A stretch of DNA of 64,000 bases from Heterodontus francisci (lineage: Eukaryota): positions 111,404,351 to 111,468,350 of the forward strand of contig NC_090378.1 in the NCBI RefSeq assembly GCF_036365525.1, in the 5' to 3' direction. The notes under the pieces are model-generated. The model was not told where the DNA came from. It saw only the letters and a list, made by a program, of their open reading frames with translations, and made no database searches. Within the stretch, counting starts at the first letter, position 1. Every line of letters begins with the position of its first letter. A program made the position numbers and the translations under genes. Shown here one piece after another: positions 7,531-60,069 of the stretch.

Positions 7531-10500
7531 GTCATAGAGTCACAGAGTCAGAAAGTCGTACAGCATAGAAACAGGCCCTTTGGTCCACCGCATCCATGCC
7601 AACCATAATGCCTATACTAATCCCACCTGCCTGCATTAATTCCATATCCCTCTATGCCTTGCTCATTCAAGTACCTGTCCAGAAGCCTCTTAAATGTCGC
7701 TACAGTTCCTGCCTCCACCAGCTCCTCAGGTAGCTCATTCCAGATACCCACTATTCTTTGTGTGAAAAATGTACCCCTTTGATCCCCTTTAAACCTCCTC
7801 CCGCTCACCTTAAATCTATGCCCTTTGGTTTTAGTCACCCCTACCATGGGAAACAGAGTCTGGCTATCTACCCTATCTATGTCTCTCATAATTTTATATA
7901 CCTCTATCATGTCCCCTCTCAGCCTCTTTTGCTCCAGGGAAAACAGACCCAACCTATCCAATCTCTCTTTATAACTCAAGCCTACCAAACCAGGCAACAT
8001 CCTTGTGAATCTTTTCTGCACCCTCTCTAGCTTAATCACATCTTTCCTGTCGTGCGGCGACCAGAACTGCACACAATACTCCAAATGCGGCCTAACCAAC
8101 GTTATGTACAACTGTAACATGATGTCCCAACTCTTGTACTCCATGCTTCGGCCGATGAAGGCAAGCATGCCATATGCCTTCTTCACCACCCTGTCTACCT
8201 ATGTTGCCACTTTCAGGGAACTATGTACTTGCACCCCAAGGTGTCTCTGCTCAAGAACACTCCCCAGGGCCCTGCCATTCACTGTATATGTCCTGCCCTG
8301 GTTTAACTTCCCATTTAACTGCGTTAAATTCCATTTGCCACTCCCTTGCCCACTTTCCCAGTTGATCTGTAAGCTGTTGTAACCTTAGACAACCTTCTTC
8401 AGTGTCCACTATACCTTCAATTTTGGTATCATCTGCAAACTTACGAATCATGCCCCTTACATTCACATCCAAGTCATTAATATAGATGACAAACAACAGC
8501 GGGCCCAGCACCGATCCCTGCGGCACACCACTGGTCACCGGCCTCCAATCTGAAAAACAACCCTCCACTACCACCCTCTGCCTCCTATCACCAAGCCAAT
8601 TTTGTATCCAATTTGCTAGCTCACCCTGGATCCCATTTGTTTGAACCTTCTGGACCAGCCTACCATGCGGGACCTTGTCAAAGGCCTTGCTAAAGTCCAT
8701 GTAGACAACGTCCATCGCCCTGCCCTCGTCAATCCTCTTGGTCACCTCCTCAAAAAACTCAATCAAATTTGAGAGACATGATCTCCCATGCACAAAGTCA
8801 TGCTGACTATCCCTAATCAGACCATGCCTTTCCAAATGCATATAAATCCTGTCTCTCAGAATCCCTTCCAATAACTTTCCTACCACTGATGTAAGGCTCA
8901 CCAGCCTGTAGTTCCCTGGCTTATCCCTGTTGCCCTTCTTAAATAAAGGCACAACATTAGCTATCATCCAGGTCTTCCGGTACCTCACCCGTGGCTAACG
9001 ATGATACAAAAATCTCTGCCAGGTCCCCAGCAATCTCCTCCCTTGCTTCCCATAGCATCCTAGGATACACCTGGTCAGGCCCTGGGGATTTATCCACCTT
9101 AATGCACTTCAAAATCTCCAACACCTCCTCCTTTGTAATGTTGATATGCGCCAGGATATCGGTGTTCCCTCCCTTGAACTCACTAGCTTCCATGACCTTC
9201 TCCATGGTAAATACGGATGAGAAATATTCATTTAAGACCTCGCCCATTTCCCGTGGCTCCACACATAGATTGCCACACTGATCCTTAAGGGGACCTACTC
9301 TCCCTAGCTACCCATTTACTCTTAATAAACTTATAGAATCTTTTAGGATACTCCTTTATCTTATCTGCCAGGGAAATCTCATGGCCCCTTTTCGCCCTCC
9401 TAATTTCCTTCTTAAGTGTAGTCCTACATCCCCTATACTCCTCGAGGGACTCGCTTGGTCCCAGCTGCCTATTCCTGACATATGCCTCCTTCTTTGCCCT
9501 GACCAGACCCTCAATATCCCTCGTCAACCAAGGTTCCCTAAACTTTTCAGCCTTGCCCTTCCATCTAACAGGAACATGCCGGCCCTGAACTCTTCCTATC
9601 TCACTTTTTAAAGCCTCCCACTTGCCAGACATCCCTTTACCTGTAAACAGCCTCTCCCATTCAACTTTTGAGAGTTCCTGTCTGATGCCATCGAAATTAG
9701 CCTTCCCCCAATTTAGGACTTCAACCTGAGGACCAGTCTTATCCTTTTCCATAACAATCTTGAAGCTAATAGAGTTATGGTCACTGGTCCCAAAGTGCTC
9801 CCCCACTGACACATCAACCACCTGCCCATCCTCATTTCCTAAGAGGAGGTCGAGTGTAGCCCCTTCTCTAGTAGGACCATCCACATACTGCTTCAGAAAA
9901 CTATCCTGGACACACTTAACAAATTCTTCCCCATCTGATCCCTTAGCACTAATGCAGTCCCAGTCAATATTAGGGAAGTTAAAATCACCTACTATTCTTT
10001 TGGGCCTCCTTATCTCGAGAGACAATGGATACGCGCCTGGAGGTGGTCAGTGGTTTGTGAAGCAGCGCCTGGAGTGGCTATAAAGGCCAATTCTGGAGTA
10101 ACAGGCTCTTCCACAGGTGCTGCAGAGAAATTTGTTTGTTGGACCTACTATTACAACCCTATAATTCATACACCTATCTGTGATTTCCCTACATATATGC
10201 GCCTCCACTTCCCTCTGACTATTGGGGGGCCTATAGTATAATCCCATCAAAGTGATCACCCCTTTCTTATTTCTAAGTTCTACCCATATGACCTCGCTGG
10301 ACATTCCCCTGGGATCTCCTCTCTGACTACTGCTGTGATGTCCTCCCTAATCAATAGTGCAACTCCCCCTCCTCTCTTACCTCCACCTCTGTCACGCCGG
10401 AAGGAATGTTACCCCGGAACATTGAGCTGCTAACCCTGCCCATCCCTCAACCACATTTCCGTAATAGCTATAATATCACAATCCCATGTACCGATCCATG

Positions 10501-16450: not shown

Positions 16451-17044
16451 CTGATATTTTCTCCAGGCTGGAAAGAGAGCAGGAGAGTGAGGGGAGGGGG
16501 GAGTGCGAGGAGGGATATTTTTGGATGGGAAAACATTAAGAAATTAACTGCAGGGTTTTGAATGTTATAAAAAGGTTTCCCACTCTATAAGCAGCCAGAT
16601 TGACATGCTAATTGTCTGGGCTGCTAGCTGAGGAGCTGATGTCAGGTGAGTCTGACACAGATGGGGGATTGGGCGTTGTGGGGGGGGGGCAGGGGTGGGT
16701 GACAGAGTCTGACAACAAAGCGGGGAAAGTGGGACTACACGGTTTGGGTTCGGGTCAGTCAATAATGGATCTGATCGTCAGCAGGCAGCATATCGGGACT
16801 GGAGGGAAACACCCCCGCTCCTTTTGGCCACAACCAGTGCAACAAAGGCATTCATGGGTTCTCACCTCCTTTTACCTGCCAGGTTTACCAACACCCAGGA
16901 ATCATGGTTACCACAAGTTAAAAATAAAAATGCTGTCAAAATGGAAAACGCTGCCTTCATTAAAGATTTCAGTGATCGATTCGCTCCAAGAGTAGATTGG
17001 ACACACTCCCATCACCTGACAGCAAATTATTGCCAGCCTTGCCC

Positions 17045-17620
17045 TGTCTCCTGAGAGTGGATTGGTCGCCCACTCCCATGACCCGTCTCCTGAGAATGGA
17101 TTGGTCGCCCACTCCATGACCTGCTTTTTGATAGTTGATTGGTCGCCCACTCCCACGAGCTGTCTCCTGACAGCGGATTGGTCGCCCACGGCCCAGGACC
17201 TGTTTCCTGAGAGTTGATTGGTCGCCCATTCCCATGAGCTGTCTCCTGAGAGCAGATTGGTCGCCCACGGCCCAGGACCTGTTTCCTGAGAGTTGATTGG
17301 TCGCCCATTCCCATGAGCTGTCTCCTGAGAGCAGATTGGTCGCCCACGGCCCAGGACCTGTTTCCTGAGAGTTGATTGGTCGCCCACACCCATGACCTGT
17401 TTCCTGAGAGTTGATTGGTTGCCCGCTGCCATGACCCATCTCCTGAGAATGGATTGGTCGCCCCTGCCTCCCCCCACAACCCACCTCCTGACAGCGAATT
17501 TGTCACCCACTTCCTTGACTGTCTGCTGAAAGTGGATTGATCGCTCCTGCTCCAACCCCACAACTCCATCCCCATCCCACCAGCAACCCTCTCCTGAGAG
17601 CGGATTGGTCATCCACTCCC
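17045..17620. repeat. Minisatellite of ~39-40 bp units (~14 copies, 79-bp dimer in the centre)
   Basis: Alternating units TGTCTCCTGAGAGCAGATTGGTCGCCCACGGCCCAGGACC and TGTTTCCTGAGAGTTGATTGGTCGCCCATTCCCATGAGC. Confidence 0.92.
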
Positions 17621-25504: not shown

Positions 25505-27690
25505 GAGGGAGTGAGCAGGAGATTCCCATCGCCTGTCTCTCCCACTGGAACGAGGAGGAGATTTCCATTGCCTGTCTCTCCCATTGGAGCGAGCAGGAGA
25601 TTCCCACTGACTGTCTCTCCCATTGAAGTGAACAGGAGATTCCCATCGCCTGTCTCGCCCACTGGAATGAGGAACAGATTTCCATTGCCTGTCTCTCCCA
25701 TTGGAGCGAGCAGGAGATTCCCATCGCCTGTCTCGCCCACTGGAATGAGGAAGAGATTTCCATTGTCTGTCTCTCCCATTGGAGCGAGCAGGAGATTCCC
25801 ATCGCCTGTCTCGCCCACTGGAATGAGGAAGAGATTTCCATTGCCTGTCTCTTCCATTGGAACAAGGAGGAGATTCCCATTGACTGTCTCTCCCATTGGA
25901 GCGAGCAGGAGATTTCCATTGCCTGACTCTCCCATTGGAGCGAGCAGGAGATTCCCATCACCTGTCTCTCCCACTGGAATGAGGAGGAGATTCCCATCAC
26001 CTGTCTCTCCCACTGGAACGAGGAGGATATTTCCATCACCTGTCTCTCCCACTGGAACGAGGAGGAGATTTCCATCACCTGTCTCTCCCATTGGAATGAG
26101 AAGGAGATTTCCATCACTTGTCTCTCCCATTGGAGCGAGCAGGAGATTCCCATCGCCTGTCTCTCCCACTAGAACGAGGAGGAGATTTCCATTGCCTGTC
26201 TCTCCCATTGGAGCGAGCAGGAGATTCCCATCGCCTGTCTCTCCCACTAGAATGAGGAGGAGATTTCCATTGCCTGTCTCTCCCATTGGAGCGAGCAGGA
26301 GATTCCCATCACCTGTCTCTCCCACTGGAATGAGGAGGAGATTCCCATCACCTGTCTCTCCCACTGGAACGAGGAGGAGATTCCCATCACCTGTCTCTCC
26401 CACTGGAACGAGGAGGAGATTTCCATCACCTGTCTCTCCCATTGGAGTGAGCAGGAGATTCCCAGTGACTATCTCTCCCATTGAAGTGAACAGGAGATTC
26501 CTATCGCCTGTCTCGCTCACTGGAATGAGGAAGAGATTTCCATTGTCTGTCTCTCCCATTGGAGCGAGCAGGAGATTCCCATCGCCTGTCTCGCCCACTG
26601 GAATGAGGAAGAGATTTCCATTGTCTGTCTCTCCCATTGGAGCGAGCAGGAGATTCCCATCGCCTGTCTCGCCCACTGGAATGAGGAAGAGATTTCCATT
26701 GTCTGTCTCTCCCATTGGAGCGAGCAGGAGATTCCCATCGCCTGTCTCTCCCACTAGAACGAGGAGGAGATTTCCATTGCCTGTCTCTCCCATTGGAGCG
26801 AGCAGGAGATTCCCATCGCCTGTCTCTCCCACTAGAACGAGGAGGAGATTTCCATTGCCTGTCTCTCCCATTGGAGCGAGCAGGAGATTCCCATCGCCTG
26901 CCTCTCCCACTAGAACGAGGAGGAGATTTCCATTGCTTGTCTCTCCCATTGGAGCGAGCAGGAGATTCCCATCACCTGTCTCTCCCACTGGAACGAGGAG
27001 GAGATTTCCATTGCCTGTCTCTCCCATTGGAGCGAGCAGGAGATTCCCATCGCCTGTCTCTCCCACTAGAACGAGGAGGAGATTTCCATTGCCTGTCTCT
27101 CCCATTGGAGCGAGCAGGAGATTCCCATCGCCTGCCTCTCCCACTAGAACGAGGAGGAGATTTCCATTGCTTGTCTCTCCCATTGCAGCAAGCAGGAGAT
27201 TCCCATCACCTGTCTCCCCCACTGGAACGAGGAGGAGATTTCCATCACCTGTCTCTCCCATTGGAATGAGGAGGAGATTCCCATCACCTGTCTCTCCCAC
27301 TGGAACGAGGAGGAGATTTCCATCACCTGTCTCTCCCACTGGAACGAGGAGGAGATTTCCATCACCTGTCTCTCCCATTGGAATGAGGAGGAGATTTTCA
27401 TCACCTGTCTCTCCCATTGGAATGAGGAGGAGATTCCCATCACCTGTCTCTCCCACTGGAACGAGGAGGAGATTTCCATCACCTGTCTCTCCCATTGGAG
27501 TCAGCAGGAGCATCCCATCGCCTGTCTCTCCCATTGGAGTGAACTGGAGATTCCCATCGCTTGTCTCTCCTATTGGAACAAGGAGGAGATTCCCATTGAC
27601 TTTCTGTCCCATCGGAACAAACAGTCGAGTCCCTATGCCTGTCTCTCCCATTGGAGTGAACAGGAGATTTTCATCATCCAATTCTCCAAG
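25505..27690. repeat. 39-bp minisatellite (~56 units, frequent 78-bp dimer)
   Basis: Units GAGCAGGAGATTCCCATCGCCTGTCTCTCCCACTGGAAC and GAGGAGGAGATTTCCATTGCCTGTCTCTCCCATTGGAGC. They produce 13-aa repeat ORFs on both strands. Confidence 0.97.
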
Positions 27691-28291
27691 AGAGGTGGGA
27701 TATGTTGTACATTCAGTGATAACACTATAAATAAATGTTCGTTTTCCCATCTACTGATAAGGGCAAGAAGAAAGCATTGACATCTTATAACGGTGTTTGA
27801 GGGGACAGTGGGAACGTGTGGAGGGAGTGGGGTTAGAGATGTCCACTCTATACTGAGTATTGGCAGCAAAGACTGTCAAAATGCTGAGGTCAATGTGGAA
27901 GGCTGATGGTCTTCATGGACATTGATGATTGGTGTTTACTGAAGAATGACCAATCTGGACAGGGAGGGGGAGTGATGAGGGAGGGAAGGGTTCTTCATGA
28001 CTGTGTTCAATGCTTCCTTCACCTGGAGTGTACATACATGCAAAGAACAACTAGGCAGTAATGGAACCCTGGTTATTTCCAAACCCCATCTTCCCCGTCC
28101 CTCACCCAGGGACACTGATTGTTGCCCTAGGAGGGACTGGCGAATTCTTGCACACACCCTGGGATCAAACCTGGGACCCACCCCTCCCAGTCAGTGGGGC
28201 AATGGTCCAGCTCTACCTTGGCAGGCTGTGTCTGTTGAGGGTTCGGCGGTGGGGTTGGGGGGGTGGTGGGGGTGGTCCCTGTATGATTTAC

Positions 28292-34310: not shown

Positions 34311-34459
34311 GCAGCCCTCACTTTCAAGTTATCCATTCTACCCATTTTTTTTATACCATACTTCAGTTTTTGGAAGATTTTTAGCTAAAGAGCCAAATCA
34401 GTGGCAATTTGGGAAGTAGAGTAGTAGGGTTGGTTGGAGGCAAGTAGTATAGGCCGAGA

Positions 34460-36014: not shown

Positions 36015-37790
36015 AGAGTCATAGAGTCGTACAGCATAGAAACAGGCCCATGCCGACCATAATGTCCATCTATACTAATCCCACCTGCCTGCATTAATTC
36101 CATATCCCTCTATGCCTTGCTCATTCAAGTACCTGTCCAGATGCCTCTTAAATGTCACTACTGTTCCTGCCTCCACCACCTCCTCTGGCAGCTCATTCCA
36201 GATACCCACCATTCTTCGTGTGAAAAATTTACCCCTTTGATCCCCTTTAAACCTCCTCCCTCTCACCTTAAATCTCTGCCCTTTAGTTTTAGTCACCCCT
36301 ACCATGAGAAACTGACTCTGGCTATCTACCCTATCTATGTCTCTCATAATTTTATATACCTCTATCATGTCCCCTCTCAGCCTCCTTCGCTCCAGGGAAA
36401 ACAAACCCAGCCTATCCAATCTCTCTTTATATCTCAAGCCTTCCAAACCAGGCAACATCCTTGTGAATCTTTTCTGCATCCTCTCTAGCTTAATCACATC
36501 TTCCCTGTAGTGCGGTGACCAGAACTGCACACAGTACTCCAAATGAGGTCTAACCAACGTTATATACAACTGTAACATGACGTCCCAACTCTTGTACTCA
36601 ATGCCTCGGCGATGAAGGCAAGCATGCCATATGCCTTCTTCACCACCCTTTCTACCTGTGTTGCCACTTTCAGGGAACTATGTATTTGCACCCCAAGGTC
36701 TCTGCTCAACAACACTCCCCAAGGCCCTGCCAGTCACTGTATATGTCCTGCCCTGGTTTAACTTCCCAAAACGCAACACTTTGCACATGTTTGCATTAAA
36801 TTCCATTTGCCAATCCCTTGCCCACTTTCCCAGTTGATCTATATCCTGTTGTAACCTTAGACAACCTTCTTCACTGTCCACTATACCACCAATTTTGGTG
36901 TCATCTGCAAACTTACAGCAAATCATGACCCCTACATTCGCATCCAAGTCATTAATATATATGACAAACAACAGAGGGCCCAGCACCGATCCCTGCAGCA
37001 CACCACTGGTCACCGGCCTCCAATCTGAAAAACAGCCCTCCACTTCCAGCCTCTGCCTCCTATCACCAAGCCAATTTTGTATCCAATTGGCTAGCTCACC
37101 CTGGATCCCATGTGTTCGAACCTTCCCGACCAGCCTACCACGTGGGACCTTGTCAAAGGCCTTGCTAAAGTCCACGTAGACAACGTCCACCGCCCTGCCC
37201 TCGTCAATTCTTTTGGTCATCTCCTCAAAAAACTCAATCAAATTCGTGAGACATGATTTCCCACGCACAAAGCCATGCTGACTATCCCTCATCAGACCTT
37301 GCCTTTCCAAATGCATATAAATCCTGTCTCTCGGAATCCCTTCCAAAAACTTTCCCACCACTGATGTAAGGCTCACCAGCCTGTAGTTCCCTGGCTTATC
37401 CCTGCTGCCCTTCTTAAATAAAGGCACAACATTAGCTATCCTCCAGTCTTCCGGTACCTCACCCGTGGCTAACGATGATACAACAATCTCTGCCAGGGCC
37501 CCAGCAATCTCCTCCCTTGCTTCCCATAGCATCCTAGGCTGCACCTGGTCAGGCCCTGGGGATTTATCCACCTTAATGCACTTCAAAACCTCCAACACCT
37601 CCTCCTTTGTAACGTTGATATGCTCCAGGATATTGCTGTTCCCTCCCTTGAACTCACTGGCTTCCATGACCTTCTCCACGGTAAATACAGACAAGAAGCA
37701 TTCATTTAAGACCTCGCCCATTTCCCGTGGCTCCACACATAGATTGCCACACTGATCCTTAAGGGGACCTACTCTCTCCCTAGCTACCCT
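36015..37790 (-). mobile_element. CR1 LINE 3' half (RT), same subfamily as 7531-10630
   Basis: 404-aa and 167-aa ORF pieces with RT motifs (FADD). High nucleotide similarity to 7545-9312. Confidence 0.95.
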
Positions 37791-38040
37791 TATATTTATA
37801 ATATATAAAACACACAGATATGTATTGTGCACATATATCATACAGATTCCCATTTTTATAAAATTCATGTAGATACATATACACACACACACTCTTACAA
37901 TTTATATAATTATCTTCATATCATATATACAGATATATATGCACACATGCATGTATCAGACAGATTCATATATAATGCACTTATATTTATACATATAGAT
38001 ATATATCATTCAATTTATAAAGATACACACACACACATGT
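37791..38040. repeat. Degenerate (TA/CA)n low-complexity tract
   Basis: Alternating purine-pyrimidine runs. Confidence 0.8.
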
Positions 38041-40829: not shown

Positions 40830-42823
40830 AGAACAAAGAAAATTACAGCACAGGAACAGGCCCTTCGGCCCTCCAAGCCTGCGCCGATCCAGATCCTCTA
40901 TCTAAACATGTCGCCTATTTTCTAAGGGTCTGTATCTCTTTGCTTCCTGCCCATTCATGTATCTGTCTAGATACATCGTAAAAGACGCTATCGTGCCCGC
41001 GTCTACCACCTCCGCTGGCAATGCGTTCCAGGCACCCACCACCCTCTGCGTAAAGAACTTTCCACGCATATCCCCCCTAAACTTTCCCCCTCTCACTTTG
41101 AACTCGTGACCCCTAGTAATTGAATCCCCCACTGTGGGAAAAAGCTTCTTGCTATCCACCCTGTCTATACCTCTCATGATTTTGTACACCTCAATCAGGT
41201 CCCCCCTCAACCTCCGTCTTTCTAATGAAAATAATCCTAATCTACTCAACCTCTCTTCATAGCTAGCGCCCTCCATACCAGGCAACATCCTGGTGAACCT
41301 CTTCTGCACCATCTCCAAAGCATCTACATCCTTTTGGTAATGTGGCAACCAGAACTGCACGCAGTATTCCAAATGTGGCCGAACCAAAGTCTTATACAAC
41401 TGTAACATGACCTGCCAACCCTTGTACTCAATACCCCGTCCGATGAAGGAAAGCATGCCGTATGCCTTCTTGACCACTCTATTGACCTGCGTTGCCACCT
41501 TCAGGGAACAATGGACCTGAACACCCAAATCTCTCTGGACATCAATTTTCCCCAGGACTTTTCCATTTACTGTATAGTTCACTCTTGAATTGGATCTTCC
41601 AAAATGCATCACCTCGCATTTGCCCTGATTGAACTCCATCTGCCATTTCTTTGCCCAACTCTCCAATCTATCTATATTCTGCTGTATTCTCTGACAGTCC
41701 CCTTCACTATCTGCTACTCCACCAATCTTAGTGTCGTCTGCAAACTTGCTAATCAGACCACCTATACTTTCCTCCAAATCATTTATGTATATCACAAACA
41801 ACAGTGGGCCCAGCACGGATCCCTGTGGAACACCACTGGTCACACGTCTCCATTTTGAGAAACTCCCTTCCACTGCTACTCTCTGTCTCCTGTTGCCCAG
41901 CCAGTTCTTTATCCATCTAGCTAATACACCCTGGACCCCATGTGACTTCACTTTCTCCATCAGCCTACCATGGGGAACCTTATCAAACGCCTTACTGAAG
42001 TCCATGTATATGACACCTACAGCCCTTCCCTCATCAATCAACTTTGTCACTTCCTCAAAGAATTCTATTAAGTTGGTAAGACATGACCTTCCCTGCACAA
42101 AACCATGTTGCCTATCACTGATAAGCCCATTTTCTTCCAAATGGGAATAGATCCTATCCCTCAGTATCTTCTCCAGCAGCTTCCCTACCACTGACGTCAG
42201 GCTCACCGGTCTATAATTACCTGGATTTTCCCTGCTACCCTTCTTAAACAAAGGGACAACATTAGCAATTCTCCAGTCCTCCGGGACCTCACCCATGTTT
42301 AAGGATGCTGCAAAGATATCTGTTAAGGCCCCAGCTATTTCCTCTCTCGCTTCCCTCAGTAACCTGGGATAGATCCCATCCGGACCTGGGGACTTGTCCA
42401 CCTTAATGCCTTTTAGAATACCCAACACTTCCTCCCTCCTTATGCCGACTTGACCTAGAGTAATCAAACATCTGTCCCTAACCTCAACATCCGTCATGTC
42501 CCTCTCCTCGGTGAATACCAATGCAAAGTACTCGTTTAGAATCTCACCCATTTTCTCTGACTCCACGCATAACTTTCCTCCTTTGTCCTTGAGTGGGCCA
42601 ATCCTTTCTCTAGTTACCCTCTTGCTCCTTATATATGAATAAAAGGCTTTGGGAATTTCCTTAACCCTGTTTGCTGAAGATATTTCATGATACCTTTTAG
42701 CCCTCTTAATTCGTCGTTTCAGATTGGTCCCACGTTCCCGATATTCTTTCAAAGCTTCGTCTTTCTTCAGCCTCCTAGACCTTATGTATGCTTCCTTTTT
42801 CCTCTTAGCTAGTTTCACAATTT
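40830..42823 (-). mobile_element. Young 5'-truncated CR1 with an uninterrupted RT reading frame, inserted in the RTE
   Basis: 645-aa stop-free ORF (40902-42839) with all RT motifs and the natural C-terminus, an ACAAAGA tail, and a probable TSD CACAA (40825-40829 and 42824-42828). Confidence 0.95.
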
Positions 42824-44469
42824 CACAACATAAACCCAACAGCTAAGAAACTGCATGAGCTGAAAGTAGCCAAGACAGCCATGCAAAGGAGAGGGAGATA
42901 CTGCACAAACACTGGATTAGCTTATGTCAAGAAATCTAAACTGCATGTGACAAAGGAAATCTGTGAGCTGTGCATGAAGGGATCAAGAGGGCGCTTGGCC
43001 CTGCCATCACTAAAGTTGTTCCCCTGAAGTCAGTAGGTGGTGATGTACTCACCGACAGAAGTAACACTACTGTGAGCTGTACCCCTGTGAGTCAAACATC
43101 TCCCAGTCTGCGTTCAACGCTCTCCCGCAACTTCCTATCATGGATGAGATAGATGAAGAACCCTCATCACTGGAGCTCGAGAATCCATAGATTGCTTCGC
43201 AAACAGAAGGGCACTAGCCAAAGGCGGAATCCTCGCCAAACTGCTCAAGCAGGGAAAATCCCATCTATTGCCACCCCTTTATGACCTTCTCCTTCTCTGC
43301 TGGAAAGTTGGCTCTGTTCCACTGGAGATGCTTGATGCCAAAATCATCAGACTATACAAAAACAAAGGCAGTAGAGGAGATTGCAACAGGGTATCTCACT
43401 CCTTAACACCACGGGGAAGGCCTTTGCGGGTGCCTTACTTAAAAGACTCCATTTACTTGCAGACCAAGTGTACCCGGAAGCACAGTGCGGTTTCTGTGCT
43501 GGCAGATCTACTGTGGATATGATCTTCTCCATACACCAGCTATAACAGAACCGTAGGGAACAGAGTATACCCCTTTACCTTACTTTTGTAGATCTCATTA
43601 AGGTATTGGACACCATCAGCACAGCAGGACTCTACAAGATTTTGGGAAAACTGGCTGTCTGCCGAAGCTCCTCAGTCTCATCCACTCCTTCCACGATAAC
43701 ATGTACTGCACTGTACAGCTTGATGGCTCCACTTTCAACAGTTTCAGAGTGAAGAATGGAGTGAAACAGGGTTGTGTCCTAGTCCCCACTCTGTTTGGCA
43801 TTTTCTTCTCCATGCTCCTAACCTTTGCCTTCCCTGCAGATATGGAAGGAGTCTACTTTCACACTAAGTCAGCTGGCAAGTTCTACAATCTATCAAGGCT
43901 GAAAGCGAAGACAAAAACACATCACCTGATCAGAGAACTCCTCTATGCTGATGATGCTGTGCTAATCACTCACACAGAAACTCAGCTACAAGGACTCATG
44001 GACTGTCTCTCCCATGCCTGTAACTTGCCTTTGACCATAAGCGTTAAGAAAACCGTGGTCATGGGACAAGGTGTTGCATCTCCGCCCCTGATCACATTGA
44101 ATAATACCCTACTGGAAGTGGTTAGCAAATTCTGCTTCCTTGGGTCCACAGTGACAGACAATATTCCCTTGATGCAGAGCTCCATACACGCATAGGGAAA
44201 GCAGCAACCACCTTTGGCCGACTCACGAAACGTGCATGGGCTAACACCAAGCTGACCCTTCGGACCAAGCTGATGGTTGATAAGGCCTGTGTTCTCAGCA
44301 CCTTGCTGTATGGCTGTGAAATATGGGTGACTTTCTACTTGGCTGTTTCTACTACTGTATTATTGTCTCATTCGTGGATTCGTCCTAAATCAGAATAACA
44401 AGATCTATTAATATTAGCAACTTAAAATAGATCCAGATTAATTGTTACAAATATTTAAACTTTATGCAG

Positions 44470-46719: not shown

Positions 46720-47600
46720 CCAAAACTCTGCTGCTAATTTGCACGAAGTCATATTCACCCATCACCCCTGTACTCTCTACATTGGTGCCCGGTTCGGCCA
46801 GGCCTTGATTTTAGAATTCTCATTCTTGTTTTCAAATCCCTCCATGGCCTCATCCCTCCCGCTCTCTGTTAATCTCCTCCAGCCTCACAACCATCTGGGA
46901 TATCTGCACTCCTTCAATGCTGGCCTCTTGAATATCCCCGATTTTAATCACTTCACCACTTTATTAAAATGTATTTTGGGATGTGAGCATTGTTGGCAAG
47001 GCCAGCATTTATCGGCCATCCCTAATTGTCCTTGAGAAAGTGGTGCTAAATAATCTTCGTGAATTCAACTGAATGGCTTGCTAGGCCATTTCAGAGGGCA
47101 GTTAAGAGCCACCCACATTACTGTGAGTCTGGAGTCACATATAGGGCAGACCAGGTGAGGTCAGCAGATTCTATTCCCTACAGGACATTAGTGGACCAAA
47201 TGGGTTTTTACCACAATCCACTAATTTTATGGTCACCATTAATGATGCCAGCTTTATTTAATTAATTTGAAATTCCCCAGCTGCCAAGGTGGGATTTAAA
47301 CTCATGTCTCCAGATCATTAGTCCAGACTTCTGGATTATTAATTCAGTAACATAACCAGCATGCTACTGTACGATTGCTGGCCATGCCATCAGCTGCCTA
47401 GGCCCGAAGCTCTGGAATTCCCTTGCTCTGCCTCTCTTCCTCTCTCTCTTTCTTTAAGACACGCCTTAAAGGCAACCTTTATCTGTCTTAATACCCCTTA
47501 TGTGGCTCGGTGTCAAATTTTATTTAATAAAGCTCCAATGAAATGCCTTGGGATTTTTTACTTTGTTAAAGGCACTATATAGATGCAACTTGTTGTTGAG
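46720..47600 (+). mobile_element. L2-type LINE 3' fragment split by a SINE
   Basis: caaaactctgctgc..cacccatcacccctgt..tacattgg..aaatccctccatggcc (QNSAA/ITPVL/HW-like). It stops at ~46960 and resumes at ~47375. Confidence 0.7.
46965..47372 (-). mobile_element. tRNA-headed SINE combining the 10643-type head with the 51030/61760-type LINE tail
   Basis: The minus strand has a degenerate A box, GAGTTTAAATCCCACC (B-box-like), a body similar to 10800-10930, then CACCACTTTCTCAAGGACAATTAGGGATGG..ATAAATGCTGGCCTTGCCA..CACATCCC. Confidence 0.7.
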
Positions 47601-49459: not shown

Positions 49460-50222
49460 ATCTGATCAGCCCCATGGAGGTGGGACCGAGAGTTAAATTT
49501 GAAAATAAGGCGTCGGCTCAGCTGCCCGACCTGTTCCCATCTCCAAGTGATCTTGCCGGAGGTGGGGTCAATGCGGCAGCGTCTACCCCACCTGGCAAGG
49601 TCTACCTCGCCCGGCAGCGTCTACCCGCTCGGCAGTGTCCATTTGCCCGGCCGCAGCGGGTAGCAAATTAGACCAATTAAAGGACCAAATGGCGGTAAGT
49701 TCCTGACGCTGCCGGGAACTTCCTGACATTGGATGGCCTCCCAGCTGAGGCCGGAGCACGGCAGCTTCCTGGAGGCTGCCTCCTGGTGGTGACCAGGGTG
49801 AGGGGGGGCGCCATTGACACCTCCTCTCAATCCCACAATCGTGGAGTTGCTGGGTTGAGAAGGCCAAAGCCACAGCCACAAGCAATCCTGTCGAGGGGCT
49901 CCCCCTCCACAATGATGGCCCTGACAGCTGTAGCCATTGTTTAATTTTACATTTTATGAAGTCTTCAGAGAGTCCCTCCATTTTGAGGCACCCTCGCATT
50001 CTCCTGCCTGTCGCAGCAGTGCCCAGCTCTCCCAGTTGGGCTCACGGCTCTCCAGAGCTTCAAGCCCTTGGACTGGGCCTGTTGCCTCGGGAACACGCCC
50101 GCCATCCTTAATTGGACAGCGAATGCAGAGGCAGCCTCTTAATTGGTTACCTGGTCGCCATGCGGCCAGACAACACCAGTGAGCTTCGGACCTGCTCTTG
50201 GTACTGACTGCAGAAAAATTTC
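49460..50222. mobile_element. GC-rich non-coding MITE-like element
   Basis: CCAATTAAAGG, CCTCCATTTTGAGGCACCCTC and CCTTAATTGGACAG motifs shared with 32620-33332. Confidence 0.5.
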
Positions 50223-50392
50223 AAAGTTTGTCAGATTCCACCCTTAAACAAAGACATAGGAACACACAGACACACAAACACACACCACCACCACACAGAG
50301 ACATAGATATGCTCACATCCCATAGATTCAAACACACACTCGCACACCACACAAAGCAAACATGTGCGTGCACACACACACATTCATAGACA

Positions 50393-51092
50393 CAATCCAA
50401 CCATCTCCTCCGACATTCAACCATATTAACATCGCTGAATCCCCCACTATAAACATCCTGTGGGTTACCATTGACCAGAAACTTAACAGGAGTAGCCACA
50501 TAAATACTGTGGCTACAAGAGCAGGCCAGAGGCTGGGAATTCTGTGGCAAGTAACCCACCTCCTAACTCCCCAAAGCTTGTCATCTACAAGGCACAAGTC
50601 AGGAGTGTGATGGAATACTCTCCACTTGCCTGGATGGGTGCGGCTCCAATAACACTCAAGAAGTTCGACACCATCCAGGACAAAGCAGCCCACTTGATTG
50701 GTATCCCATCCACAAACATTCACTCCCTCCACCACTGATACATAGTGGCAGCAGTGTTTACCATCTGCAAAATGCACTGCAACAACTCACCAAGGCTCCT
50801 TCGACAGCACCTTCCCAACCTATGACCTCTACCACCTGGAAGGAAAAGAGCAGCCGATGCATGGGAACACCCCCACCTGCAAGTTCCTCTCCAAGCCACA
50901 CACCATCCTGACTTGGAACTATATCACCGCCATTCCTTCACTGTCGCTGGGTCAAAATCCTGGAACTCCCTTCCTAACAGCACTGGGTGTACCTGCAGTG
51001 GTTCAAGAAGGCAGCTCACCACTACCTTCTCAAGAGCAATTAGGGATGGGCAATAAATGTTGGCCTAGCCAACAGCCCATGAATGAATAAAA
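50393..51092 (+). mobile_element. 3' fragment of a second CR1/L2-group LINE family
   Basis: NIL.VTIDQKL..SSHINTVATRAGQRLGIL and IYKAQVRSVMEYSPLAW..DTIQDKA remnants, with tail CTTCTCAAGAGCAATTAGGGATGGGCAATAAATG.TGGCCT. Confidence 0.8.
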
Positions 51093-51349
51093 TTCTTACA
51101 TTCACCTATGATGTTTAACAGGAAGCTTTGATCCAAGTCTGTAACTGGTTAATTATGCAGATCACTACACTTAACCATCTCCCTTTACATATGTAAAAGG
51201 TGCTGCTTTAAGATCCAAGAATTTCCTCTTAATATTTTAGACATCATGAAGTCAAAATTATCTTGTTTTCTTCCAATTTCCTGTCCCCCATAGCTGGTGC
51301 TGCCCCCTATAGGGATACCATTCCACAGGCATTCTCCTGCCAGTACATC

Positions 51350-51456
51350 ACCCATCCATACCTGCCCAGGGAGTGTTTGATTGCACTGTCCAGACGGAGC
51401 TTTACTCTGTATCTAATGTTTTCTTCTAGGGAGCTTTACTTTGTATTTAACACCCC
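51350..51456. repeat. Left remnant of the ~67-bp tandem repeat (Tx1 target flank)
   Basis: ACCTGCCCAGGGAGTGTTTGA..GGAGCTTTACTCTGTATCTAA, then a second AGGGAGCTTTACTTTGTATTTAAC. Confidence 0.75.
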
Positions 51457-54400
51457 TTTTTTTAAGTGAAGGAAGCCTTGATACCCCAGGCCCTTTTATT
51501 TTTGTCGAGGGGACCTTTATTCTCCAGGCCTCCTTTATATGTATTTTAATTTTTTGTATATTACATAAATAACTTCATTTTTAAAAAACAGGTAAATAAA
51601 ACAAAACTCAAATTAAAATGTAATTTTCAGCATCAATGATGCACTCCAGCCCCTGAGGTGCCCACCAGTCGCTGAAGGCCTCAAGCGACCTGGCAGACAT
51701 CGCTTGTTCCTTCTCCAGGGACACCCGCATGCGAACATAACCTTGGAAGAGGTGCAGGGAATCAGGGTGAACAGACCCCCAGATGGCATGTACCTGGACT
51801 TGTGAAATGCCACCTTGGCCGGGCCCAGGAGCAGACTATCGAGGGGATCCCCCCCACCCTCCGCACCGGGTGTCCAAAGATCATGAGCGTGGTTCTGAAG
51901 TGCAGCCAAAACTTGAGGAGCAGTCCCTTTAAATACGCAAAGAGGGGCTGCAACCTCGCACACTCCATACATACATGGAACCCAGACTCGTCCAGGCAGC
52001 AGAAATTACAGGCAGCCTGGGAGTCCGTGAACCTACTTAAAAGCTTATTGCATGGGACTGCCCTGTGCAGCACCCTCCACCCCAGGTCCCCAGTGTAAAT
52101 AGACTCTCGCGTAGAGAGACCTCCACCGGGGGTTTCCCCTCATCACCAGATGGCAACACAGACTGCCACAGCGTGTCCGGGCGGCAGACGAGGGCGAGGA
52201 AGCAGAGAGTGTGCAGGAGCAGCCCATACAGGAAACCCCTCCGCACGGTGTGGAATGGTATGGAGGGCAATTCCAAGAGGCTACTCAAGTTGTGTGGGAC
52301 TGGCTCCCGAGGAGGGTTTTGGGGCTTGGGTCCGATGAACAGTTCCGGCCGAGCGGGGATCAGCTCGGCTGGGAGTGCTCCACACTCCCGAGTCCCCTCG
52401 TCACCCACAGTGAAGGGCATCCTGGGAACTTCAGCTACTCCTCCACCCGTCGGTCTGTCCCTAGAGCCGGCAGCCCGGACAGCCAAGGCCCTCCCCTCTC
52501 CTCCACCGGCGGGGGAGCACCCTGACTGGAGGCGACCATGTTCCAGACTCTGTTAAGATCCCGGGAAAAGACAGGCAACTTCCTCAGAGAGGCGCGGCTA
52601 ACGTTCTCCGCCGGCAGCTGCGTGTCGTCTTGAAGGCAATGCCCCTGGCGGATAAAATGCGTCAAAAGTGCATGCCATCTGGGAGGACACTCGACATACA
52701 GGTATCTCTGCAGGGTCCGAAGGCGGAGAGTTGCAGTCTGGGTGCGGACGCACACCAGCGACTGGCCGCCCTCCTCAATCGGCAGACTCAGGACCACGGC
52801 AGACTCTCAGTGTTTCCTCTTGCCCCAGAAGAAATCGACAAGCTTCTTCTGGATCTTGGTGGCAAATGCGGGGGGGCAGGACCAAAAGTGACCAGTTGGT
52901 ACCACAGCATCGAGGCTACCAGTTGCTTTATGACCAGCGCTTGGCCCCTGTAGGAAAGTACTTGGAGCAGTCCTGTCCAGCACCCTAGCTGAATGGTAAC
53001 TTTCACCTCCAACTCCTGCTAGTTTGCTGGCCAGGCTTCCTCAGCGGGACTCAGGTGGACTCCCAGATAGAGGAGGTGCGTGGTGCTCCACGCAAAAGGT
53101 GTTAACTCCTCCGGCAGGGAGTCCATCCGCCACTGACCCACCAGGAGTCTGGAACATTTCTCTGAATTGATCCTTGTGGAGGACGCGGCAGAAAAGATCT
53201 GCTGGCATTCGCACATCCTCTGCAAGTCACGGGATCTGTGACCGTGAGGAACACGCCATCGCGTAAGCCAAGAGGATGACCCGCATGCCCAGTCCATGCA
53301 GAGCCAAACCTGCCAACCTCCTGTGAAGCAGGCACAGGAACGGTTCCACGCAGATGGTATATAATTGGCCAGATACGGGGCATCCCTGACATACTCCTCT
53401 CCCAAAGCGAAGGGACACCATCAAGGACCAGCTAACTTTGACCAGACACTCTGCGGTACAAAAGTCGGACCCAGGCCACAAAATGCGGCCAGAGTCCGAA
53501 CACACGCAGAGCCCTGAAAAGATATTTGTGTTCCATCCTGTTGAACACCTTTTCCTGAGCGAGGGAGAGAAAGGCAACCGACAGACCAGTCCTCTGGGAA
53601 AGTCGGATCAGGTCCAGGTCTAGGTGGATGTTGTCCTGGGTGGACCGGCCTGGGACCGTGCAGGAATCGTCAGGGTGGATCGTGTGGGCCATCACAGACT
53701 TCAGGCGGGTGGACATAGCCCGGGCAAAGATCTTATAATCCGTGCTGAGGAGGGAGACCGGACACCAGTTCTTAAGCAGGCGGAGATCACCCCTCTTCGG
53801 CAGCAGGGCGATTACCACCCTGCACCACGAGAGGGGCATCTCCCCGGTCGCCAGGCTTTCCCCCAGGACCCGCGCATAAGCGCCCCAGGATGTTGCAGAA
53901 CGTCCTTAAGAACTTTGCGGTCAGCCCGTACAGCCCGGGGATTTGCCTCGCGAGAGCTGGGGGAGGGCTCCACCAACATGAGAGGAGCCTCCAGTCCCCT
54001 CCAGGCTGACCTCCGGTAGGTCCTCCCACATGTTTCTCCGCGCATCCTCACTGCACGGATGCGGAGAGAACAACGCACTGTAATAGGTACGGACCTCGAT
54101 GAGCAGCTCGATGAGCTGCTTCCTAAACCCCCGCCATTTTCCCAGCGAGTAGAAGAAGGGTGAGGCTCAGTCCAAATCTTCCAGGATCTGGATCCGCGAC
54201 CTCAGGTGCACACCTGAGGACCCTACGAGCTGCAGGTCCCTCAGTGAGCCCTTCTTCTCTTTGTACGCCTGCCACAGGGCCGGGCCCACGATGCCTTGAC
54301 TGCAACAGGACTCCAAGTCGAGCACCTCCCTCTCCCAGCGCCTGATCTCAGCCTTCCGCCTCTTGGTCGACCCCTTCGCGTACTCCTGACAGCAGACATG

Positions 54401-57400
54401 GATGTGAGTCTTGCCCACATCCCACCATAGCCTCAAGGAGAGGAACCCCCTGCTTCCTTCTCCAGTCAGCCCAGAATTGACGGAACGAGTCCTGGAATCA
54501 CTCGTCCTCCAGCAGCCGGTTGTTAAAGTGCCAGAACGCGGACCCTGCCCGCGTGCGGAGAAGAGTGAACTCTGCCCACACCAGGTGGTGGGCTGAGCAT
54601 GGCACTAGCTGCATGGAGGCCACCAAGATGCAGGAGAAGTACACCTGCGAAATGTAGAGACGGTCGATTCGGGACCCTCCTCCTCCAGACCTCCAGGTGA
54701 AGGTGCTGGAATCGGGATGAAGATTCCGCTAGACGTCCACCAAGTTGAGGGAGTTGGTCAGTTCTCTCAACTTCTCTACCAATGCTTGACAGCGCTGGGG
54801 AGTGGAGCGATCCTGCACCTCGAGGGTACAGCTAAAATCCCCCTCAAGGATGATGCACTCGCCGTTATCGATAGAGTTGAAGTGAGCAGACACTTCTTCA
54901 AAGAAGCGCGCTTACAACTATTTTACCCAGGTGAATGGCAAGGTGGAGCAAGCTGATAGACCTCCAAGAGCTCCAGCTGAAAAATCGGGGCCAACAAGAT
55001 AGCCACCCCACTAGAAATAGGGGTGAGGTGACTCATGTAGACCCCACCCTATCACTCCAGGAGCCAGGTGGCTTCGTCTCCTGGAACGGTGCATATCTCT
55101 ATTCCCTGAGGACTGAGAGATTGTGAAATCTGCAGTGAGACCCACTGCTGCTATTGATGTTGAGGCTGGTTATGGTTATCTTCATGTTAAAAGTACTTTG
55201 AAACCCATCACCAACACCTCACTGTGAAGAGGGAGCAGAAGTGCACTTCGCCTTCCACTCCTCCAGCAACCCATTGAGGAATGCTTTGAACTGGTGCCTC
55301 ACAACCACTTTCACACCTGCGCCCTTCGCCCCCCTTCTTGAGGGCGGCACGGACGGACCACATTATCAGCGCCAGATTTGACCATCGGCCTAGGGCCAGT
55401 TGAACTTTATTGTGGCAACCCCGGCATGCCGCGAGGAAGTCCCGGAGTTCTGCTGTGGGGATGGCAGGAGGCACGAGGGACTCCACTGCCTCACTGGCAA
55501 TGGATTCAAGATCGTCCTCCATGCCCCACACTGATTCCCATCCTCCTCTGGGTCGTCACCGCCAGCAGCCGACACACCCACCAAACTCTGTGAGGTGGAC
55601 ATTCCGGCCGCACCAGTTGGTCCTGCCTCCAACATGATCTCGCCCCCAGGATCGATGGCGAAGGGATTCTCTCTGGGTTCTTCTATGGAACTGGAGCCAA
55701 TGGGCACCAGTGGTTCAGGAACCCCCTCCACCTCCTTCCCCAGGCCAGTGAGCGGCCCAGGGGAGATGGTAGTTTCCGACTCAGGAGATCCACCCGAAGC
55801 CGGGACTGGAGGCGGAGAGAGGAAGCCAACTCCCACTCTGCCAGCGCCCGCAGGCCCAGCAGATGCGGCACTATGTAAATTGGCCTCAGGATCGGGTACA
55901 TCCTGGGCAGCAGCATCAGGCTGCTGGGAGGTTTGACCCTCACAGGTCTCGCCCCCCACCCAGGACACCCGCCCCATTGGCATAAGGAGCAATTTCTCCC
56001 GTGGGGTCCACAGGCTCTCCCACAGCAGGCGGGCCCTCTCCCCCATCATCGGGAGTTGCGAAATTAACAGGGGCTTCTCTCCCGACTCCATCCTGAGAGA
56101 CATAGGGCTGCTGCTTAGGGTTCGAGGCCCTGATAGCCCTTGTGGTGGGGGAAGGCTGAGGACTTGTGCCAGGAGAGGGACTCTGTAACTCCAGGTCCTC
56201 TTCAGAGGAGGTAAGCCTCCTCCTCGTATTTCAGGAAGAGCACGGAGGCTCAGAAACCTCAATCTCAGTAGAGGTCTCTGCTTCTACCTCCCCACCACCC
56301 CCAACCCCGCCGCCCAGATTCTTTAGCCCGAGCTTAGCCGCAGGGCAGGTGGGCTCCCTGGATCAGGCTTAGGGCTAAGCTGAGGCTCAGGATTTTTTTT
56401 GTATCCAGGGGGTGTGCCTTCGAATGTTTTGATTTGCGTCATGCCTTCTTTCCAATCGGACGGGTCTCCCACTCCCAATGGCCTCCAGAACCGCCTGAGC
56501 GGTGTTTGTTGCAGATGTAGGCGGAGTAGGGGGAGGTGCAGTAGAGGGAGGTGCAGCGGCGCCACTCTGGGCCGCCAAGGCGGAGTTGACTCTTATGAAC
56601 ATGCACCACCCCCTTACAGGCATGGCATCATGCCCTGTCCAAGGATTAGAAGACACAGTATGTCGCCCCTTGGAACTCCACATTTAACTGGCACTCCATG
56701 ACTTCCTCTGGCGTCAGCTGCATAAAGAGCTGGTGGCGGAAGGAGTAGAAGTGCCGGTGGCTGTTCTCCCGAAGACCAAGCGGGACTGGGGTGAGCCCCG
56801 TCTTTACCGCCCCACGATGGTGCAGGTGGGGGAGGAGGAGCTCACCAGAAATGAAGGGCAGACATTCGGCAAATTGACCCACTGCGCAGTGGCCTCCAGG
56901 GGCTCCACTGGCAGAAATATCCCACCCACAGTGAGCCCTTTGCTCAGGGCCAGGGACACCGCTCGCTCGGTCTTCAGGAAACAGTCTTCCTGTACATTTT
57001 AGAGGCAGCAACAGTGGCCGAGGGGGCGACAACCTCGGCCATTGCTTTGACACATGCCACTATTGACATGTTGAGATGGAAGGGAGAGTAAGGCTGCGAG
57101 GAAGTTTCTCTTTAATAGGTGATTGGAGTAGCTTACTTGAGAATCCAAAGCCCAGTCTTCCAGTCAGGGGAAGGTTCTTCGCCCGGGTCAGCTGGAGCTG
57201 ACCGATTCTTTCCTCTTCCTGCTGTTATATAAAGACTGTCTTTAGTGGGCAGCTCCAGCTGTCCCGAGCCACGCAATTGGAGTGGGGAGGGAGCTCCCTT
57301 GATGCAAGATGGAAGAAAAGCACAAGAACAAATACAGGGGCTCCCTATAGAGCTTTGCAGCCCCACCCTGGATCTTCCAGCGTCTCTACCCTCCCCCAAC

Positions 57401-57621
57401 AGACCAAACAAAAACAGTTCTCTGGTGCTCCAACACTCACCTTTCCAAAATAACGTGCAGGTCTTCTTTGCTCTCCACTAAATAGAAACAGTTCCACACT
57501 TGAAGTTGTAAATCTCTCAGCTCTCTCCCCTCTCCTCTCCAGCTGCAGCTCCCATCAGCCTGCACAGGTGCAGTTGTTTTGCCTGATTGCACACAGGAAG
57601 TACGCCACAAATTCTCCAGCC
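51457..57621 (-). mobile_element. Full-length decayed Tx1-clade non-LTR retrotransposon (5' UTR, ORF1, ORF2, 3' UTR; ~6.2 kb)
   Basis: ORF1 remnant from ~57070 reads MSIVACVKAMAEVV..ASKM..FLKTERAV..GLTVGG.FLPVEPL..PFISGELL..RHFYSFRHQLFM with a CHAC knuckle. ORF2 starts MKITITSLNIN at 55185, with LLPKRGDLRLLKNW.PVSLLSTDYKIFA, TVPGRS..DNI, GRGV.QGCP.SG.LY and a C-terminal CNFC..H..MEC motif ending ~51613. An oligo(A) lies at 51457-51463. Confidence 0.9.
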
Positions 57622-57624
57622 AAT

Positions 57625-57813
57625 CCCGTGCTGTATCTGCCTTGGGAGTGTTTGAAGGGACAGTGTAGAGGGAGCTTTACTCTGTATCTAGCCCGTTTTT
57701 TTTTTCTTTTTTCTTTATTAGGCAGCAGAAAACCCATGCTTTACCTTCCTTGGAAGTGTTTGATGGGACACTGTAGAGGGAGCTTTACTCTGTATCTAAC
57801 TCATGCTGTCCTG
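57625..57813. repeat. ~67-bp tandem repeat (2+ units) with a short poly(A) insertion
   Basis: CCCGTGCTGTATCTGCCTTGGGAGTGTTTGAAGGGACAGTGTAGAGGGAGCTTTACTCTGTATCTA at 57625 and again at 57733, with a T-rich insert at 57696-57730. Confidence 0.85.
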
Positions 57814-58635
57814 AAATAAGAAGGATGAGGATGGATCCAGTGTGACAGAGATACTTAATGATCCTCTATTCACTGCAGTCGAGACATTTGCACTTTGTGC
57901 CCAGAGAGTGTGTCGGATGTGAATCAGTCACACTCATGGCCTCAATCTATTCCATCTCTGGGAATTCCTCTGACTCTGTGTCCAAATGTCTACTCCTGAC
58001 GGTACAGCGCAGTGCCTTGTGGAATTCACCCGTTTACATTGCTGGGTGACGAAGAACGTTCTGCTGTGGAATCAACCTAGCCCTGTGCGACTGCACACAT
58101 GCAGCGACCTCACATTGGCCCAGATTTTACTGGACGGAGGGCATCGCTCAGCATGCCCTGTGACCTGAATTTCTCCCCTCACCCTTTAGCTGGGAAAAGG
58201 TTTGCCTGCAATTTGCTGGAAGCGTGAGCTGATCGCAAGGTTGCCAGGGCATCTGGGAATTAGGTGAATGACTGACCCAACAAGCTTTCTCCTTAACCCA
58301 GATTTAAAGATAGAGATGGAAACAGAGGAACAATGGAGAAGAAATAGGGTGAATTTGATACAGAAAGAGAAATAAACAGAGGGAAACAAAGACAGGATTA
58401 AGAAAGAGCAAAAAAAAGAGATGGCAAGGAAAAGTAAGAAAAGTGGCAGCTGTTCTCCTGACTATCTGATTGTGGGAGAAATCACAGCCAGCCTGCTCCC
58501 TGACTCAGTGGTGCAGAGGCCCAGTTGTCGCTGCCCAGCTGAATCGAGCTAACCCAGTACAGACTACGGCATGGAAACAGTCAGCCCGCAGTTGTGCTCA
58601 AGTCACAATCTAGGACTTTCTGCCCACAGAGCTTT

Positions 58636-58833
58636 CCTGATATAAGGAGGAACTCTGTCCCTTTCCCCATTATCCTCAGGAAAGGACAATCCCATTCCCA
58701 GACATCGGGGGAACTCTGCCCCTTTCCCCATTATCCTTGAGAAAGGACCAGCACATTCCAGACATCAGGGGAACTCTGTCCTTTTCTGCATTATCCTCGG
58801 GAATAGGCCAATTTCCAATGTCAGGAGAAACTC
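58636..58833. repeat. ~60-bp tandem repeat, 3 copies
   Basis: GAACTCTG.CC.TTT..CATTATCCT recurs at 58650, 58711 and 58771. Confidence 0.8.
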
Positions 58834-60069
58834 AATGTTCTGCCCCAAGCCCAGATGCTACATATCAGGGAGAAGGCTCACCCCGACACTCCCGCATGCC
58901 TTGATGCCAGGAAGGCTCATCCCTGACCCCGATACCCCCCCGCCCATGCCTCGATGTGCCAGGGGTTGGACACACTTCTGTTTATGCTTCTGCTCACTGT
59001 GCCCCCACCACCAAGCCCCCCGAATCTACATCACATCTAGCACCAAAAGCTTCTCAAACCCACAAAGCTATGTGGTGTCATGCATACCAAGGGAAGGGAG
59101 ATGCGAAATATGCACTGAGACCACAGCGGGGGGATGCTTGGCGGCAGGAGGTCACGTGATGAAACCTCCAGGGCTACATCCAACCAGAGTTGGCAACCCG
59201 AAGGGGACCCTTACCCAACATGGAAGAGTTAACGCCTTCTGATGGGTCATGTTGCTTCTGGTCAAGGGGAAGGATATTGAAATAAAAGACTTAAGAGATG
59301 AAGGGAGGGGGAATGAATAGCCTGTCACTCGCACATGAGATGGCAGAAGGGAAAGGAGTGAGAGAAACAGGACAGGACCCTTTGTACCTGTCGAGGAGAA
59401 TGAAGGGACCTGCCAGCTGTTTGCGAGCTAGTGTCTGCTTGCCTGGCAGTTCACATAAGGCATCACTCTTTGACTTGCCATGAGCGTATGTGTGAATAAT
59501 TAACAGTAATTAATCCTCAATTACCATAATTAAGCAAGTCACAGAAAATTAAGTGGCATCTGGAGGCGTCTTCAACAGAGGCGGACAGTGCGCTCAGCTC
59601 CTCCATCAGCCATCTGAAAGTTCATTCTGTGCAGCAAAGTACCACCTCTCAAACATTTTAGTCCTCGGGGAGGTCAGGGGCTGGGCTTGTGGATAGGCCT
59701 GGCAGTACCTGCAAAGAAATTAACCTGGGAGATTGTATATTGACTGCCTAGGCTGGGACGCCTGTGGGTTTCTCACATCCCCCTCCCTCCATGGTTGAGG
59801 AAAGTGCTGACACTCACTATTGAGTGTCACATAGCAAAAATGGCTCAGCTAAATGAGGCAGTGAAAGGCTGCTAACACCACTGGAACTGTAAACCCAAAA
59901 GCAGCCAAGTTCTTCAGGATAGGAAGGGAGTAGGGGAGAGAATACATCTGCAACGATACCTGGTTTCCTGATGGGTGGACCCCACACTGCCAGAACACCC
60001 TCCAACTCATTGCACACAGCCATCTCAAAGTCACAGTCCTTATCCACTGGTCAGTGACAATCCCTACAT

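Follow-up and report, generated by a model that had tools for sequence, protein, structure and literature searches.

Two poly(A)-tailed inserts, one of them a decayed Tx1-type LINE, at the same position of a 67-bp repeat unit in Heterodontus francisci

A short array of 67-bp repeats split by a LINE

The window analysed here, a 64-kb (64,000 nucleotides) stretch of the Heterodontus francisci genome, contains a 6.2-kb Tx1-type LINE on the minus strand that splits a 67-bp tandem repeat in register. The earlier note on this DNA had placed the element at 51457-57621, minus strand, between two parts of one array, and this placement is borne out: the left flank ends at 51456, a run of seven T (T7) follows at 51457-51463, and the repeat resumes at 57620-57622. 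The tandem repeat of about 67 bp proposed there was likewise recovered, with a period of 67 bp. The left-flank unit aligns to unit C of the right flank with a score of 74, which none of 4465 random 120-nt windows reached (maximum 32), and BLAST of flank against flank returned the unit matches alone. With unit C (57625-57692) as the query, BLAST, nhmmer and a 22-mer scan of the 64-kb window detected clear copies only at 51350-51456 and 57620-57813; the best stray match (17/18 nt at 27793) had an E-value of 0.02, in agreement with the earlier observation that the repeat occurs nowhere else in the window.

Without its inserts the array would measure about 275 bp (0.43% of the window) and comprise about 3.5 units (A, a partial B', C, D and a 14-nt start of E), which are 81-89% identical to each other. 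Unit A, the most diverged (81-82% to C and D), lies at 51340-51416 on the plus strand together with about 10 nt of the end of a preceding unit. It is followed by an 11-nt pyrimidine stretch without assigned strand (51417-51427), located inside a 20/23 direct-repeat match, and by B' (51428-51456, plus strand), which corresponds to the last 29 nt of the unit and is 91-92% identical to C and D over 22-24 nt. On the other side of the element, unit C (57620-57695, plus strand) keeps the 67-bp period and is 88% identical to unit D; it runs from the duplicated target stretch up to the primer site of a second insert, described below. Unit D and roughly 14 nt from the beginning of the following unit, where the array ends, occupy 57730-57813 on the plus strand.

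The array is absent from the 71 rows reported for the window by Tandem Repeats Finder. Neither an Rfam family nor a tRNA matches the unit, which folds no better than its shuffles (z of -0.26 and 0.70). No oligo-T or terminal inverted repeat borders the outer edge of unit A, and no inverted repeat links 50000-51470 with 57600-59500, where old ends could have decayed. The outer flanks have no direct terminal repeats between them and neither recurs in the window. We take the 67-bp repeat to be very abundant in shark genomes.

Other repeats surround the locus. A dispersed repeat at 50500-51093, which we presume to be related to the 3' part of a LINE, has an end that matches 46991-47063 in inverted orientation; it stops about 250 bp left of the array, and the array is not its tail. 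Another short array (61 bp, 2.9 copies; 58634-58812) lies about 0.8 kb to the right of the locus. Two 39/78-bp minisatellite arrays are present at 25513-27669 and 17043-17463; the longer one yields frames that stay open for about 750 codons on each strand, probably not genes.

Anatomy and decay of the large element

The large element consists, in its own 5' to 3' direction, of a presumed 5' region, an ORF1 with a zinc knuckle, an ORF2 with APE endonuclease, reverse transcriptase (RT) and zf-RVT regions, a 3' hairpin and an A7 tail. The 3' UTR of about 145 nt (51457-51607, minus strand, including the T7 run of the plus strand) ends with a nested hairpin predicted by minimum free energy folding (-26.1 kcal/mol, z = -2.54); 3 of 200 shuffles folded as well, for one of four sequences folded.

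ORF2 (51608-55185, minus strand) is broken. Its identification relies on Pfam, a tblastn map, PDB matches (L1-EN/LR1/LTx) and alignment. Four of 13 pieces matched Pfam families, namely RVT_1 (E = 4.5e-11 and 0.018) and, weakly and below the curated cut-off, Exo_endo_phos (0.044) and zf-RVT (0.007). Relatives used as tblastn queries cover ORF2 piecewise over several frames, and the layout of Tx1-clade ORF2 proteins, i.e., an N-terminal APE endonuclease, an RT and a C-terminal zinc region, is present in pieces.

ORF1 (55182-57078, minus strand) is also broken and combines a Tx1-type N-terminal region, a decayed CCHC knuckle and a long low-complexity tail. It was recognised by tblastn with the relatives P0072, P0078 and P0086 (36% identity to P0078 over 74 aa, E = 1e-8). 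P0078 and P0072 carry an intact zf-CCHC at the matching place, which is decayed in the window copy. One ORF1 frame would stop at a TGA overlapping the ATG of ORF2; this candidate stop/start overlap reads ATGA (55182-55185, minus strand), an arrangement that suggests coupled translation, as far as the sequence can tell.

The remaining 540 bp or so (57079-57619, minus strand) are presumed to be a 5' UTR or promoter region by position only, because the repeat resumes beyond them. They show no homology support, no self-match in the window and no Rfam match at the gathering score. A good splice-donor-like motif is found around 57440 (minus strand). This region could include an intron or captured host sequence.

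The earlier note had called the element full-length, which holds for its extent and fails for its coding capacity. Frameshift-aware alignment revealed a total of 8 stops and 14 frameshift calls in ORF2: 6 and 7 against P0003 (residues 22-769), 2 and 7 against P0033 (721-1288). The aligned part of ORF1 displays 2 stops and 4 frameshift calls against P0078; several of the frameshift calls are paired and could be artefacts of the alignment. In the endonuclease, the window copy reads GDFS and SAH at positions where all six aligned relatives have GD[F/W/Y]N and DH. Judged by these altered catalytic motifs, the copy is dead and its endonuclease inactive as written. The hairpin loop of its endonuclease counts 7 residues, two fewer than in L1, and aligns without gaps to the R1Bm loop graft 2v0s; the loop is also 7 residues long in P0034, and 11 in P0003 and P0033.

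Relatives of the large element

The RT piece is most similar to an unnamed ENA protein (71% identity), followed by proteins from a stingray (65%) and a sturgeon (63%) and by a Takifugu protein annotated 'Transposon TX1 ... ORF 2' (50%). In a representative library it obtained 14,418 matches at E ≤ 0.001. A medaka cluster named TX1 was also matched. Tx1-like ORF2 fragments were found in Hemitrygon akajei (P0002), Rhincodon typus (P0055 and P0086), Acipenser sinensis (P0003, flagged UNVERIFIED_CONTAM by NCBI) and sea turtles (P0006, P0009-P0011 and P0014), with identities of about 53-65% across the RT piece where a value was reported.

In a quick, midpoint-rooted IQ-TREE phylogeny of the window copy and 108 of 155 proteins (47 were dropped for short coverage), the window copy branches in a clade of 15 rows (SH-aLRT 100) with the ENA, stingray, whale-shark (P0055) and sturgeon proteins and 10 further rows; five of these ten were looked up and all five are from sea turtles. 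The tree was built without P0086, P0010 or any curated Tx1L, Keno, Kibi, Koshi or L1 reference. The assignment to the Tx1 clade in a chondrichthyan setting made in the earlier note is supported by the stingray protein and the whale-shark gene models among the closest relatives, which by themselves point to an elasmobranch host. Tx1 repeats have been reported in the whale shark and Callorhinchus (PMC8455134).

Two of the gene models have a composite structure: P0006 (Lepidochelys olivacea) joins four near-identical RT copies, and P0086 (Rhincodon typus) an RT and the ORF1 that follows it, which suggests clustered or head-to-tail relatives and gives weak context to the site preference discussed below. 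The window itself also contains long open frames with RT-like sequence from a different type of LINE (8251-10046, 36075-37901 and 40902-42842), one of them open over 646 codons, which share 23-33% identity with Tx1-like queries and which we assume to be CR1-like.

Insertion junctions and a second poly(A)-tailed insert

For an element in minus orientation the oligo-T marks the primer side. It is preceded by ACACCCC, the break on this side lies just after CCC(G), and the unit resumes on the far side with ATCCCGT. The earlier note had located the insertion at a TATCTAA-CCCGTG junction of the unit; the in-register split stands, with the break 4-5 nt to the right of that point and a decayed duplication. 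An ACCC-like stretch present on both sides of the element would represent this duplication of 5-7 bp, with best matches of 4/5 and 5/7 nt; it accompanies an A7 tail, and is short, imperfect and near chance expectation. An L1-type TTTA (by the L1 endonuclease consensus of PMC1950540) exists in the unit on the same strand (57676), about 17 nt from the insertion site, and was left unused; the site itself is not T-rich.

A second insert, overlooked in the earlier note, separates units C and D at 57696-57729 (34 bp, minus strand). It is composed of about 10 nt of unique sequence, an AATAAA and an A-rich tail. Read on the plus strand, AGCCCG is followed by 10 T and 24 more bases, after which AACCCAT resumes the unit. 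This stub shares with the large element the unit position (within 1 nt), the orientation and the geometry of the duplication (4/5 and 5/7). Its overlap with the 3' UTR of the large element is limited to A-rich sequence, and it is not the 3' end of that element; as its sequence differs from this end, we regard it as a separate event. No other copy with up to 3 mismatches is present in the window.

The 11-nt stretch at 51417-51427, left of B', was left out of the insertion-site evidence. Its resemblance to the start of unit D is matched by only 78 of 2000 shuffles, and that to units C and A by 519 and 1548 of 2000, respectively. With the 29-nt B' it has three possible readings: a unit that has lost its interior, the decayed remains of a poly(A) insert flanked by a 23-bp duplication, or the second tail of a 3' read-through.

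A probable preference for one position of the unit

We consider it more probable than not that an old Tx1-type LINE was inserted by target-primed reverse transcription into a pre-existing 67-bp minisatellite, through an endonuclease that prefers one position of the unit. The APE endonuclease would nick the plus strand just after CCC(G), and the free 3' end, at a point where T is the next nucleotide of the unit, would prime on the poly(A) tail of the RNA; at the large element this primer would be the 3' end of B'. Cleavage of the second strand 5-7 nt upstream would produce the short duplication. This enzyme, or a sister of it, would then have cut the neighbouring unit and reverse-transcribed no more than 34 nt of another polyadenylated RNA, which may come from a heavily 5'-truncated sister family or have been mobilised in trans, and the large copy would have decayed after its insertion. 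Across the genome, the element family is predicted to prefer the 67-bp repeat, which would offer it many copies in which an insertion does no harm, in the way that other Tx1 families prefer their own targets.

The second insert favours a site preference set by the endonuclease. Given that it fell in a unit, the chance that it would lie within 1 nt of the first on the same strand is 3/134 = 0.022, calculated post hoc. Of the 27 runs of at least seven T in the window, two begin inside the 275 bp that are repeat (binomial 0.006, again post hoc, and one of the runs defined the finding), and three follow CCC or CCC-N, two of them being the inserts and the third lying at 34345. Both clear inserts (2/2) agree in position and orientation, within one locus, and the parent of the stub need not be Tx1. 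The site preference proposed in the earlier note gains a second insert at the same nucleotide as internal evidence, although both events belong to this single locus; with n = 2, one locus and post hoc probabilities, the data hint at a preference.

The translated ORF across the 5' junction (57454-57816) yielded no further copy with flanks in the protein set, with none at E ≤ 1 among 79 near-length candidates and none at E ≤ 10 among 13 longer ones, and tblastn of 154 RT relatives gave no match to the repeat or the 5' region at E ≤ 1e-3. An exact-motif scan of GTDB returned 0 matches, and a phage collection likewise returned none. These collections suit the question poorly, and their empty results carry no weight for or against specificity. 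An RT scan of GTDB returned two weak loci on contigs of Planctomycetota (bacterial) metagenome-assembled genomes, and the ESM Atlas, queried with translated units, gave a best score of 0.79, a low recognition that is uninformative.

A less likely explanation, though one with a real share of the probability, is that a weakly specific or promiscuous LINE struck a common repeat at random or because the locus is a hot spot, the shared position reflecting a preference for a short motif or DNA shape, for example CCCG/T beside the imperfect palindrome of the unit. Two events at one locus with weak duplications are what such an element could leave, the presumed abundance of the repeat in sharks raises the prior of chance strikes, and one of the 25 other T7+ runs (34345) also follows CCC-N. 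This explanation has to accommodate two A-tailed inserts at one nucleotide of a repeat that makes up 0.43% of the window, and an L1-type site in the unit that was passed over.

It is unlikely that the units are instead part of the element, as 5' UTR monomers or 3' read-through, and travel with it, a possibility that the earlier note had named as one that would overturn its proposal. In favour of this reading, two units directly adjoin the 5' side of the element, homology does not settle where the element truly starts, and beyond the tail the 29-nt partial unit and the 11-nt A-rich stretch could derive from a donor copy by 3' read-through. Such read-through would itself imply a donor in the same repeat, units in one register occur on both sides of the element, and the outer left edge of the array lacks oligo-T. 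Moreover, a duplication of its own accompanies the stub between C and D, hence these units behaved as target DNA, and we disfavour the idea that they are the element's own termini.

We give equally little credence to the joint proposal of a coupled elasmobranch system, in which the Tx1 endonuclease would home to one bond of the 67-bp unit and place there both its own and unrelated poly(A) RNAs, while read-through transcripts (the 29-nt partial unit and the A-rich stretch) would carry the target along, seed landing sites and spread the repeat. Least probable is that the true target was some larger mobile element, or a type of locus, with the 67-bp unit as its internal repeat, and that the short array is its remnant: some means must have brought a 3.5-unit array to the locus and there is precedent in Tx1L within Tx1D and Tx1-Mar within Mariner-N4 (PMC4494074), but the outer flanks have neither inverted nor direct terminal repeats, do not recur in the window, and no Rfam or tRNA gene is nearby.

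Comparison with other Tx1-clade elements

The preferred reading, insertion at one position of a pre-existing repeat, resembles the behaviour of Xenopus Tx1L, which also has two ORFs, an APE endonuclease with an RT, and a fixed insertion point in repeated DNA. Differences are apparent: the target here is a 67-bp unit for which no transposon ends were found, the duplication is about 5-7 bp long where that of Tx1L is reportedly 23 bp, and the copy is dead. In addition, the hairpin loop has 7 residues, against 11 in the Tx1L endonuclease, which nicks its own target almost exclusively (PMC1950540).

Target preference is widespread among these elements. The Tx1 clade is one of three main target-specific groups (PMC4640811), and the Tx group is likewise named as a main one elsewhere (PMC3747384). 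Many Tx1-clade families with a target preference have been described, such as Tx1 in Tx1D, Keno in U2 genes and Kibi/Koshi in microsatellites, together with Tx1-Mar in a Mariner and others in LTR or Harbinger elements (PMC4494074). Satellites, U5 and 5S are among the known targets given in the legend of Fig. 3 of that paper (Kojima, 2015; PMC4494074), where a family counts as target-specific if at least 20% of its copies are flanked by the same target, and where tandem insertions and a trans-mobilised SINEU occur at the same targets. Of the targets named in the earlier note, 'Dewa into tRNA arrays' was not found in the portions of the literature searched.

The crocodilian pair of Tx1-Mar and SINEU, compared by description only, would share with our locus a preference for certain fixed positions within an abundant repeat, the insertion of unrelated short RNAs in trans and tandem insertions around the duplication; it differs in that no U1 or U2 head is present here according to Rfam and in that our target is not recognisably a Mariner. 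Keno, Kibi, Koshi and the Tx1 families labelled 'Sat' in Fig. 3 of Kojima (2015) are likewise Tx1-clade APE elements aimed at multicopy DNA, but the flanks here are not U2, tRNA, 5S or microsatellite. Keno was rejected for lack of a U2 snRNA flank, with no Rfam match in the window at the gathering score, and Kibi/Koshi because the flanks consist of the 67-bp unit and not of (TC)n or (TTC)n. By analogy, the locus would work like Tx1L or Tx1-Mar; judging from its flanks, it is not Keno, Kibi or Koshi.

This pair of element and target was not found described in the literature searched; Repbase or Dfam may already list the family. A 20-nt motif of the unit, on either strand, retrieved no paper, three 12-nt motifs were absent from both of two supplements of PMC11406177, and the 67-bp repeat was not found in the part of PMC11406177 that was searched.

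Implications

Since Tx1 families that target transposons, microsatellites, satellites and RNA genes have already been described, the locus presents at best a new pair of element and target. The known mechanism is unchanged, and as the copy is dead, any use would depend on young intact copies. If the preference were family-wide, it would add a pair from a cartilaginous fish to the catalogue of Tx1 targets, with an APE endonuclease whose GC-rich, non-L1 target and short hairpin loop would be useful for questions of target switching, and it could shed light on the interruption or spread of a dispersed minisatellite in sharks.
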